A stretch of 64,000 nt of DNA from a virus, in IMG/VR virus record IMGVR_UViG_3300044294_000190, positions 1-64,000 of that record; one strand, given 5' to 3'. The notes below the pieces were generated by a model that saw only the letters and a list, made by a program, of their open reading frames with translations, was not told the origin of the DNA and made no database searches. Positions 52,491 through 53,644 of this stretch are shown here, piece by piece; the stretch's first letter is position 1, and every line of letters begins with the position of its first letter. A program made the translations under genes and the position numbers.

Positions 52491-53644
52491 ACAACCACCG
52501 GCTCGTACTCAAAGTTATCAACATTTGATGCAACAGAACCTCCGCTTGTTTCTCCAAAAATAACACCAAACTTTATTCCTCGAGTATCAGACGCTGACGC
52601 GTTATATGTCATAGTTAAAGTTCCCGATCCGTTGTCCATGGGGGCAGATATAGTTACTGTATTGTCTAATGTGAGTACGTTAACATAAGAGGGTCGAGCG
52701 TTTTGGGATGTGTTGATTTCAGGACTAGTTCCAATAGTAGTTATCACACCATTTATTGATTTTCTCAAAATTAAGCGGTGAAGGTGCGCCGTGGAACTAC
52801 CAGTTTGAAGAGTTGCTTCGTAGTTGCAAGCATAGTAGGTATCTGGGTAGGTTATTTGAACGCAATTTCCATGGTACGTATATGGGGTAACGTGATAGTT
52901 AATGATGTCGAAATTTGCCCAACATATGCCATTGTGATAATGCTGCCCAGGGGGACATAGTCCACCTTGAGAGGGGTCAACAGCATTACTAAATATATAG
53001 CAACCACAATTATGAAAAAACCTGTCATAACCTTGACAGCCGGGGGCGGTACTAGCGTCGTAAGGACAACCACCAGTATCAAAACAAGTACAACTTGGGT
53101 AAGTTGGTGTGCAATTAAGTGTTTGGTATGGAGGCCTGCAACAGTTACCACCAGAGACTTCGGTACGTCCAGGTATTGTGCACGTTTTTAAACACGTATT
53201 TCCGGAAAGAGTCCCACCGTTTGGGCATGTGTAAAAACTGTAGGATCCGCTTGATGTGTACTGGTCGGTAGTTACAGAAAACCAGTTATTTTGATCAATT
53301 ACCCAAAAAGCTGCTCCCCATCCCCAGTTAGAAGAACCTTGTCCAATTCGTACCCTTGCCTTTTTAGTGTTTGTACGAATAGTTGCGAGGGGATATGAGG
53401 AAGGAGATGTATTGCTTAATAATCGGTTTGAGGAAATTTGCCAACTACCGCGCAATTTTTCCCATAGCAAGTTTTCCGTTGATATCGTTTCGTTGTTTGC
53501 TCGATTAAAGTCGTCAGTTCTTGCACTTAAAGGTTTAACGTCTAATCGATATGTTCTCTTACCCTTGTTACCGGTTAGGGAAGAATCACGAAATCGTAGT
53601 TGAAAAGTTCGTCGGACAGATGCCGACGACGTTGTGTAAATCAC
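52487..53644 (-). CDS. putative fibre/receptor-binding protein: beta-sandwich with 16-Cys insert
   Basis: DDFNR..RGSW..GAAFWV.D.NNW scaffold ending VDNF; all Cys lie in residues 140-273. Confidence 0.75.
   Translation of the reverse strand: MIYTTSSASVRRTFQLRFRDSSLTGNKGKRTYRLDVKPLSARTDDFNRANNETISTENLLWEKLRGSWQISSNRLLSNTSPSSYPLATIRTNTKKARVRIGQGSSNWGWGAAFWVIDQNNWFSVTTDQYTSSGSYSFYTCPNGGTLSGNTCLKTCTIPGRTEVSGGNCCRPPYQTLNCTPTYPSCTCFDTGGCPYDASTAPGCQGYDRFFHNCGCYIFSNAVDPSQGGLCPPGQHYHNGICWANFDIINYHVTPYTYHGNCVQITYPDTYYACNYEATLQTGSSTAHLHRLILRKSINGVITTIGTSPEINTSQNARPSYVNVLTLDNTVTISAPMDNGSGTLTMTYNASASDTRGIKFGVIFGETSGGSVASNVDNFEYEPVVV

Follow-up and report, generated by a model that had tools for sequence, protein, structure and literature searches.

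The DNA analysed here, referred to as the window, comprises positions 1 to 64,000 of the IMG/VR virus record IMGVR_UViG_3300044294_000190, a record of 73,595 bases estimated to be 78% complete. Genes for a tail sheath, a baseplate wedge, a portal and a major head protein identify the phage as a myovirus. Upstream of the terminase lies a fibre-like gene cluster, and within it the gene of a 385-amino-acid (aa) protein, a putative adhesin with a cysteine (Cys)-rich insert. The adhesin gene begins with a GTG, overlapping by 4 nt the end of the 109-aa open reading frame (ORF) upstream, and its 3′ end lies 4 nt inside the next ORF; the homologs P0001-P0004, which carry MIYTASSAS at the matching position, back this start. 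The protein consists of several segments (Table 1): an N-terminal extension, two halves of a Cys-free β-sandwich and, between the halves, a 16-Cys module flanked by two ribbon arms. The extension (residues 1-43) varies between family subgroups in the alignment and likely serves in attachment.

Table 1 Segments of the putative adhesin and associated genes, in window coordinates. pLDDT, predicted local distance difference test; ConA, concanavalin A; E, strand.
Feature	Position	Strand	Basis
Knob-bearing putative adhesin gene, 385 aa	52487..53644	-	GTG start, stop 52487..52489; ORF list, translation, 32 full-length homologs with the same start
Residues 1-43, N-terminal extension, likely attachment segment	53516..53644	-	pLDDT 38-66; three alternative N-termini in alignment
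Residues 44-127, N-terminal half of Cys-free ConA-like jelly-roll scaffold	53264..53515	-	pLDDT >90; invariant residues; fold matches
Residues 128-139, outgoing arm of predicted Tyr/Thr/Ser-rich β-ribbon	53228..53263	-	strand E120-139 in full model; E7-13 in insert-only model
Residues 140-273, 16-Cys module: opening hairpin C140-C151, variable core, closing hairpin C261-C273	52826..53227	-	Cys positions; pLDDT; invariant columns
Residues 274-286, returning arm of predicted β-ribbon	52787..52825	-	strand E278-297 in full model; E152-158 in insert-only model
Residues 287-385, C-terminal half of Cys-free jelly roll	52490..52786	-	pLDDT 89-97; invariant G360, D376, F378; fold matches
109-aa fibre-like protein, stop overlaps adhesin start	53641..53970	-	phrog_11338 'tail fiber protein', E 1e-06; phrog_1276
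53-aa DUF6171 micro-protein, six invariant Cys, start overlaps adhesin stop	52329..52490	-	PF19668, 32.4 bits (cut-off 27)
Protein X, ~110-116 aa, no Cys, start uncertain, third cassette gene	52000..52350	-	homolog in 41/57 knob loci, 0/21 others
Inverted second pair: X paralog 54429..54749, DUF6171 paralog 54746..54910	54429..54910	+	PF19668, 38.9 bits (cut-off 27); inverted repeats I1/I2
Second Cys-rich protein, 156 aa, 14 Cys, no sandwich scaffold	55696..56166	-	ORF; homologs; alignment with invariant Cys

The Cys residues of the adhesin are found at positions 140, 151, 155, 168, 169, 178, 185, 187, 193, 203, 213, 215, 230, 241, 261 and 273. Residues 140-273, which correspond exactly to window positions 52826..53227, hold all 16 of them. 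When 16 positions are placed at random in a 385-aa protein, none of 200,000 placements falls within a 134-residue span. The confinement of every Cys to this insert, as claimed in the original prediction, is therefore borne out by translation, coordinate mapping and random placement alike. The Tyr/Thr/Ser-rich strings given there as the borders of the insert are present as quoted, with QYTSSGSYSFYTC at residues 128-140 and CNYEATLQTGS at residues 273-283, and the module opens with CPNGGTLSGNTC at residues 140-151, again as described.

In the AlphaFold2 model, built on a 33-row alignment, residues 41-140 and 280-385 reach pLDDT values above 90 and are all β. Structural comparison (VIA) shows that both scaffold halves together form a ConA-like jelly-roll fold. 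The best match is the carbohydrate-binding module (CBM) CBM66 (4b1m; Z 15.8, root-mean-square deviation 2.7, 152 of 165 residues aligned), followed by the lectin domain of galactocerebrosidase (Z 15.6), the C-terminal receptor-binding domain of mycobacteriophage TM4 gp23 (9n6a, Z 15.2), a Douge baseplate protein (8zdo chain a, Z 14.3) and the CBM2 of phage J-1 Dit (Z 11.9). Altogether 103 chains reach Z>=8, most of them CBMs, lectins and β-sandwich domains of GH43, GH16 and GH32, and in BFVD uncharacterised Caudovirales proteins come first, followed by actinophage minor tail proteins. The β-sandwich expected from the sequence alone is thus found, and the model places it among the lectin/CBM-type domains, a kind used by phages at their tail tips. 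Carbohydrate binding by the scaffold is putative, given this fold kinship. The actinophage receptor-binding domains resemble the adhesin in their tail- or fibre-gene setting as well as in the jelly roll, which aligns with 9n6a, 8zdo_a and 4b1m over 152-175 residues, but no sequence relationship to these three is detected when the family profile is run against the PDB at E<=10.

In sequence the adhesin falls into no curated family: neither Pfam nor PHROG has a match to the 385-aa protein, and the family profile finds only Complement C2 among PDB sequences (E 0.7-2.5, treated as chance). At E<=0.001, Foldseek finds no PDB match for the full model, as the low-confidence insert disturbs the global superposition. 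By fold, the protein stands with the phage receptor-binding domains of CBM/lectin type.

The position of the insert within the jelly roll is indicated by relatives that have none. The more distant, high-GC relatives L063-L077, the only sequences here that show a knob-less form, share the N-terminal motif DDFNR...W...SGDWSI.SN with the adhesin, complete the domain in ~175 aa and contain 0-2 Cys. Where the adhesin exits the sandwich (…NWFSVTT…), they read …WNLFSVVGG…, a GG turn at the knob site, and enter the next strand at once. Because the turn lies directly there in these relatives, the 158 residues between the conserved halves of the adhesin can be regarded as the elaboration of a single hairpin turn. 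Behind the compact lectin-like domain, loci L063-L079 (for example L063:3819-5099) encode long repeats rich in Ala, Thr and Leu, of ~11 residues each (…TATLTASG…), and then a short C-terminal tail that is conserved.

Two strands of the model (120-139 and 278-297 by DSSP), each of 20 residues and about twice the length of a normal jelly-roll strand, lead toward the insert. In a model of the insert alone, the 25 residues at either end reach pLDDT 83-96, with the terminal strands at 94-96, and the core remains at 55-72. A ribbon-like stalk bearing the insert is therefore predicted. Of the β-ribbon stalk and disulfide knob originally proposed, the strands that leave the sandwich are recovered and the stalk is predicted from them, but the knob itself is a prediction only, at the core values given above. 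The insert-only model has no Foldseek match at E<=0.001, and only one of 48,161 chains compared with it reaches Z>=2 (best Z 2.0); with a core of middling confidence, this is no proof of a new fold.

The family was surveyed through 32 homologs, all metagenomic, from a search of 5.8 billion proteins, and through an IMG/VR scan that yielded 78 loci, 57 of them with both scaffold halves in one ORF. The combined set holds 71 distinct sequences, or 70 without L025, which ends at a contig end; L025 does not enter the final counts of parity and clusters, and the excess of knob over scaffold that it seems to show is disregarded. The alignment has 13 invariant columns, all of them outside the insert; those in the N-terminal half are D44, F46, R48, W61, W68, S72, P85, G108, G110 and W114. 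Across the 70 relatives the insert ranges from 54 to 331 aa and contains 8, 10, 12, 14, 16, 18, 20, 22, 24 or 28 Cys, never an odd number (even in 71 of 71 distinct members). The whole protein has an even count in 68 of the 71, the other three carrying one lone additional Cys in the scaffold. At 40% identity the inserts fall into 14 clusters, all even, several of which mix different even counts; even if the clusters alone are taken as independent, the probability of such parity by chance is at most 6e-5. This alignment agrees with the prediction of a conserved scaffold with a variable insert of even Cys number. In L020, L022, L029 and L046-L049, a 43-aa N-terminal match in the upstream ORF raised the idea of a read-through or frameshift fusion with the upstream fibre gene; it is rejected, since each downstream gene starts at an ATG of its own (MIPGI... 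or MPIL...), which lies a few codons past an ordinary TAG or TAA stop.

Within the knob type of the window, Cys accounts for 8 of the 14 invariant insert columns, and C169 and C178 are gained or lost together. An extra hairpin unit in P0065 adds three Cys to the outgoing arm and one to the returning arm, and the P0026 type has four more on the outgoing and two more on the returning arm. These comparisons, which bear indirectly on the nested layout originally suggested, show paired gains and losses of Cys, in some cases local and in others between the two arms. The 16 Cys of the window copy most likely form eight intrachain disulfides, a reading drawn from sequence. It is strengthened by the nature of the terminal hairpin. 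Searched alone against 1.84 billion representatives, the insert gives 20 matches at E<=0.001, the best of which are proteins of 500-900 aa in which query residues 3-41 (…YTCPNGGTLSGNTC…) match 8-18 times in tandem. Three of the five tandem-repeat proteins that were read (P0061, P0063 and P0066) have a signal peptide or membrane anchor at the N-terminus, and ten tandem-hairpin proteins show only weak Pfam matches, to cEGF, EGF_Tme5 and the PBCV-1 P7 disulfide-bonded subdomain (PBCV1_P7). The terminal unit thus appears to be a widespread two-Cys hairpin resembling those of epidermal growth factor (EGF), found here in proteins with export signals, which favours disulfides. The adhesin unit CPxGGxLSGxxC has the spacing C-x-x-G-x-x-L-x-G-x-x-C in common with EGF-like and cEGF repeats, but the adhesin itself has no EGF-family match and contains single hairpins, not complete six-Cys EGF domains. 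Disulfides in virions have precedents in the freshwater cyanophage Pam3 (PMC9942802) and phage Jabs (PMC13419713). As an observation in its own right, P0061-P0079 carry 8-18 tandem YSCPxGGTLSGxxC hairpins, several with a signal peptide or anchor, and match no curated repeat family above threshold.

Alternatively, the Cys could bind metal, as zinc or iron-sulfur sites that staple small domains, with the zinc-ribbon-like DUF6171 protein acting in metal delivery. Synthesis in the cytoplasm is consistent with this, as are the 16 Cys (4 x 4) and 5 His of the window insert, the six invariant Cys of DUF6171 in CxxC...CxxCxC...C spacing, and the failure to find a thiol oxidoreductase gene in the record. 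Metal sites do not require strict even parity, however, and in 39 of 70 members the insert count is 2 mod 4, with a median of 0 His. The hairpin unit also occurs in signal-peptide proteins. Ordinary zinc fingers, which had been named as the outcome that would speak against a knob, are not seen: the insert has no Pfam match, of a zinc-finger or any other family, at E<=10, an 8.7-bit match on a relative is the sole hint, and the mid-confidence model gives no zinc-finger fold match. Metal binding by the family is accordingly judged quite improbable, and a metal cluster in the window copy, with its 16 Cys and 5 His, is less likely than disulfides.

The opening of the insert had also been likened to the repeats of conjugative TraN (PF06986). 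Like the adhesin, TraN is rich in Cys and exposed at the surface, and its variable contact region offers a functional analogy. A relaxed form of the hairpin motif is absent from the F-plasmid TraN (603 aa, 22 Cys), however, this protein reaches -14 bits with the family profile, its best BLASTP hit among 90 family members has an E of 0.17, and no Pfam TraN match to the insert is found at E<=10. The resemblance is not supported, and homology between the two is extremely unlikely.

Insert and scaffold diverge at different rates. Pairs with a scaffold identity of 0.8-0.9 have a mean insert identity of 0.56, and pairs at 0.9-1.0 a mean of 0.68 and a minimum of 0.41; at a scaffold identity of 0.72 the insert can already be unalignable, with 331 or 229 aa against 80 aa. 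In P0021 and P0022, for example, the scaffold halves are 59% and 72% identical and the inserts of 229 and 80 aa cannot be aligned. P0003 and P0017 show the reverse, an insert identity of 0.75 with long identical runs at a scaffold identity of 0.34. Nonsynonymous (dN) and synonymous (dS) divergence was estimated by the Nei-Gojobori method for 33 close locus pairs, in 24 of which both parts could be estimated. The dN/dS ratio is higher in the insert in 23 of the 24, with one tie, and dS is higher in 20. The raised dS points to imported, older alleles, and together with the divergence pattern it points to cassette recombination and weaker constraint on the loops rather than to hypermutation. Judged on these pairs, divergence is faster in the insert than in the scaffold, and the insert moves between scaffolds as a cassette.

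The suggestion that the tip is hypervariable fails if it means variation that is programmed or arises within a population, and what is seen is variation between lineages. An insert that serves as the target of a diversity-generating retroelement, or that mutates by some other route inside a single phage population, would be in keeping with its place as the most variable part of the family and with a protein with an Mtd_N domain encoded 2.5 kb away. No RVT_1 match is found in the 73.6-kb record (78% complete), however, and no direct repeat pairs with the insert (52826..53227) within 50000-60000, which leaves neither a reverse transcriptase nor a template and variable repeat. The contigs of X8, X9 and X10 that span the insert show 0 differences; this comparison used the contigs of X8-X11 (17 runs, contigs only), in which rare variants are hidden, depth has no meaning and the gaps of X9 and X11 prove nothing. 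Programmed hypervariability is largely refuted, and its probability is minimal.

A β-ribbon that rises from a β-sandwich and carries a small disulfide-rich domain with variable loops and a variable Cys pattern is known from the ultralong third complementarity-determining region (CDR-H3) of bovine antibody heavy chains, to which the insert had been compared. The likeness extends to the predicted geometry and to the behaviour of the Cys; an even but variable Cys number (71 of 71 even, 8-28) is what a disulfide-held knob would show. It does not extend to the scaffold, which is a ConA-like jelly roll and not an immunoglobulin domain, nor to the mode of diversification, as the adhesin varies between lineages by divergence, indels and recombination and not somatically, with no reverse transcriptase, template repeat or between-sample variation. 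The module is also larger (54-331 aa, 8-28 Cys). The bovine stalk and knob thus serve as an analogy only.

The adhesin gene is followed by two small genes (Table 1). In 53 of the 57 knob loci the next gene downstream is a DUF6171 homolog, which in nearly every case lies on the adhesin strand, 0-300 nt past the stop; of the four loci without it, one ends at a contig edge and the other three are of one type. Neither DUF6171 nor protein X occurs in any of 21 loci that have no complete adhesin. The DUF6171 protein, with its six invariant Cys, is far more conserved than the knob. Its profile retrieves only bL33 zinc-ribbon proteins from the PDB (E 0.32, not significant), and no mention of it is found in the literature searched. 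Protein X has no family match and nothing reliable in the ESM Atlas. A predicted complex of adhesin residues 40-385 with the DUF6171 protein, with a score of 0.00 and a mark of 0.32, is not evidence either way. From their linkage, DUF6171 and X may reasonably be considered candidate helpers for folding, oxidation or loading.

Taken together, the protein is probably an adhesin of the virion fibre cluster, in which a lectin-like body presents a lineage-specific host-recognition knob built on a disulfide framework. The short N-terminal segment would dock the adhesin to the fibre apparatus, and the rigid, Cys-free jelly roll would form the body or handle. One jelly-roll hairpin, a two-residue turn in the knob-less relatives, would be extended into the Tyr/Thr/Ser-rich ribbon, bearing a module of ~134 residues and 16 Cys with EGF-like two-Cys hairpins at its start and end, in which the Cys framework is conserved and the loops between vary. 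Eight intrachain disulfides would give a compact knob, resistant to proteases and the environment, that presents these loops to the host surface. The disulfides may form when the particles are released into oxic water, or the linked genes may assist, with DUF6171 and X as candidates for a role in folding, oxidation or loading. Specificity would shift between lineages through loop substitution, through indels that add or remove Cys pairs (including duplication of the hairpin unit) and through recombination of whole knobs between scaffolds.

The principal alternative is that the jelly roll is the real receptor binder, recognizing a glycan, and that the insert is a structural or protective elaboration that would stabilise the protein in oxic lake water or serve as a spacer or as a secondary or reversible attachment site, its variability reflecting weak constraint. 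The closest folds are indeed CBMs and lectins, the raised dN/dS of the insert stays at or below 0.34 as relaxed constraint would have it, and inserts of 54-331 aa have no conserved core across clusters. The invariant scaffold residues, however, are the terminal DxFxR and DxF and a Trp/Gly core, positions typical of structural roles with no obvious ligand site. Near-identical knobs on scaffolds of 34% identity argue for selection on the knob itself, and the Cys framework is strictly kept. This alternative is thus considered unlikely, though less so than metal binding.

Several points weigh against a host-recognition knob. Receptor binding could reside in the lectin-like scaffold itself, and incorporation of the adhesin into the virion is putative. 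The protein is made in a reducing cytoplasm, its disulfides are deduced from sequence rather than from an experiment or a coordinate-level model, and thioredoxin and glutaredoxin genes were not found in the 73.6-kb record (78% complete). With 5 His in its insert, the window copy may hold some metal sites. The core of the knob reaches pLDDT 55-72 in the insert-only model and 40-68 in the full model, so that the knob is a prediction. An insert dN/dS never above 0.34 gives no overall signature of positive selection, and in three further lake samples the contigs that span the knob are identical to the window there. Since the related loci are not phylogenetically independent of one another, and the 21 loci used for comparison are more distant or truncated, 53/57 against 0/21 overstates the independent support for the gene linkage. 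DUF6171 is also found in cyanomyophages and other cultured phages (IME-SM1, syn9) with no comparable Cys-rich gene adjoining, which in turn marks the linkage as specific to the adhesin family.

The adhesin with its knob has a counterpart in the fibre-tip adhesins of the T-even gp38 type, in which a small adhesin gene with a conserved frame and variable segments follows the fibre gene and precedes helper genes. The order of fibre gene, small adhesin gene and small conserved helpers is common to both, and in related loci the adhesin gene comes directly after a fibre gene of 294-390 aa. The two are likened by gene order; gp38 uses glycine-rich motifs where the adhesin uses Cys, and the candidate helpers here are DUF6171 and X rather than Tfa- or gp57-type chaperones. 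A further, tentative proposal, which we hold to be rather doubtful, is that the knob, by analogy with that of bovine ultralong CDR-H3, is a portable binding module and that DUF6171 and X install or protect its many disulfides despite cytoplasmic synthesis, which would make the locus a phage-encoded oxidative-folding or loading system coupled to a host-recognition cassette swappable by recombination.

Lectin-like tail domains are well known in phage host recognition; for a large, cassette-like disulfide-framework knob within such a domain, no description was found in the literature searched. If the knob determines specificity, it would provide a sequence-readable host-range marker for abundant uncultured freshwater phages and a natural binding scaffold that is compact and evolvable. 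A further question would be how maturation of a protein with at least eight disulfides proceeds in the cytoplasm of a phage-infected cell.

All metagenome runs containing the stretch (17 runs) are from lakes or fresh water, and the phage is an uncultured freshwater myovirus whose host is probably an actinobacterium. Three weak hints suggest this host: the large terminase has its best cultured relatives in Streptomyces phages (46.6-47.6% identity), the fold neighbours of the scaffold include actinophage proteins, and the ESM Atlas returns only unnamed viral and Actinomycetota clusters for the adhesin. WhiB has no match in the genome record. Neither tblastn of the protein nor megablast of window 45000-60000 finds a match in cultured phages (50,697 phage records).

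Other members of the cluster include a 521-aa protein with fn3 and Gly_rich_2 domains and a 293-aa protein with an Mtd_N domain and many tail-fibre PHROG matches. The Mtd_N (major tropism determinant N-terminal) domain at 56179..57060 (-) scores 65.7 bits, yet no reverse transcriptase is found in the 78%-complete record. The 156-aa Cys-rich protein has hairpin and YPAxYxAT units at both ends, in common with the adhesin knob; its 27 homologs (137-205 aa, 39-71% identity) are far more constant in length than the knob. The second DUF6171 and X pair lies in the only plus-strand island and faces this second Cys-rich gene. The two pairs are inverted relative to each other, and the adhesin and 109-aa genes lie between imperfect inverted repeats, I1 (74 nt, 74%) and I2 (44 nt, 73%). 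Some related phages likewise have two copies of DUF6171 close to the adhesin gene, variously arranged, as at L024:6937-7101 and 7742-7966 and, ~5.4 kb upstream on the opposite strand, in L046/L049.

Directly after the cassette of adhesin, DUF6171 and X comes a glycosyltransferase gene (50911..51999, minus strand; phrog_7162, E 4e-37), a homolog of which is present at a distance of up to 6 kb in only 3 of the 57 related knob loci. A divergent allele, with 21 differences in 128 nt, is carried by one X8 contig where the glycosyltransferase and X genes meet (51857..51984); the adhesin is identical. At window ~54008-54042, a short GC-rich and Pro-codon-rich stretch at the start of the plus-strand island, the contigs of X10 and X11 continue into unlike sequence on either side, which may reflect a repeat-induced assembly break or a variant junction.

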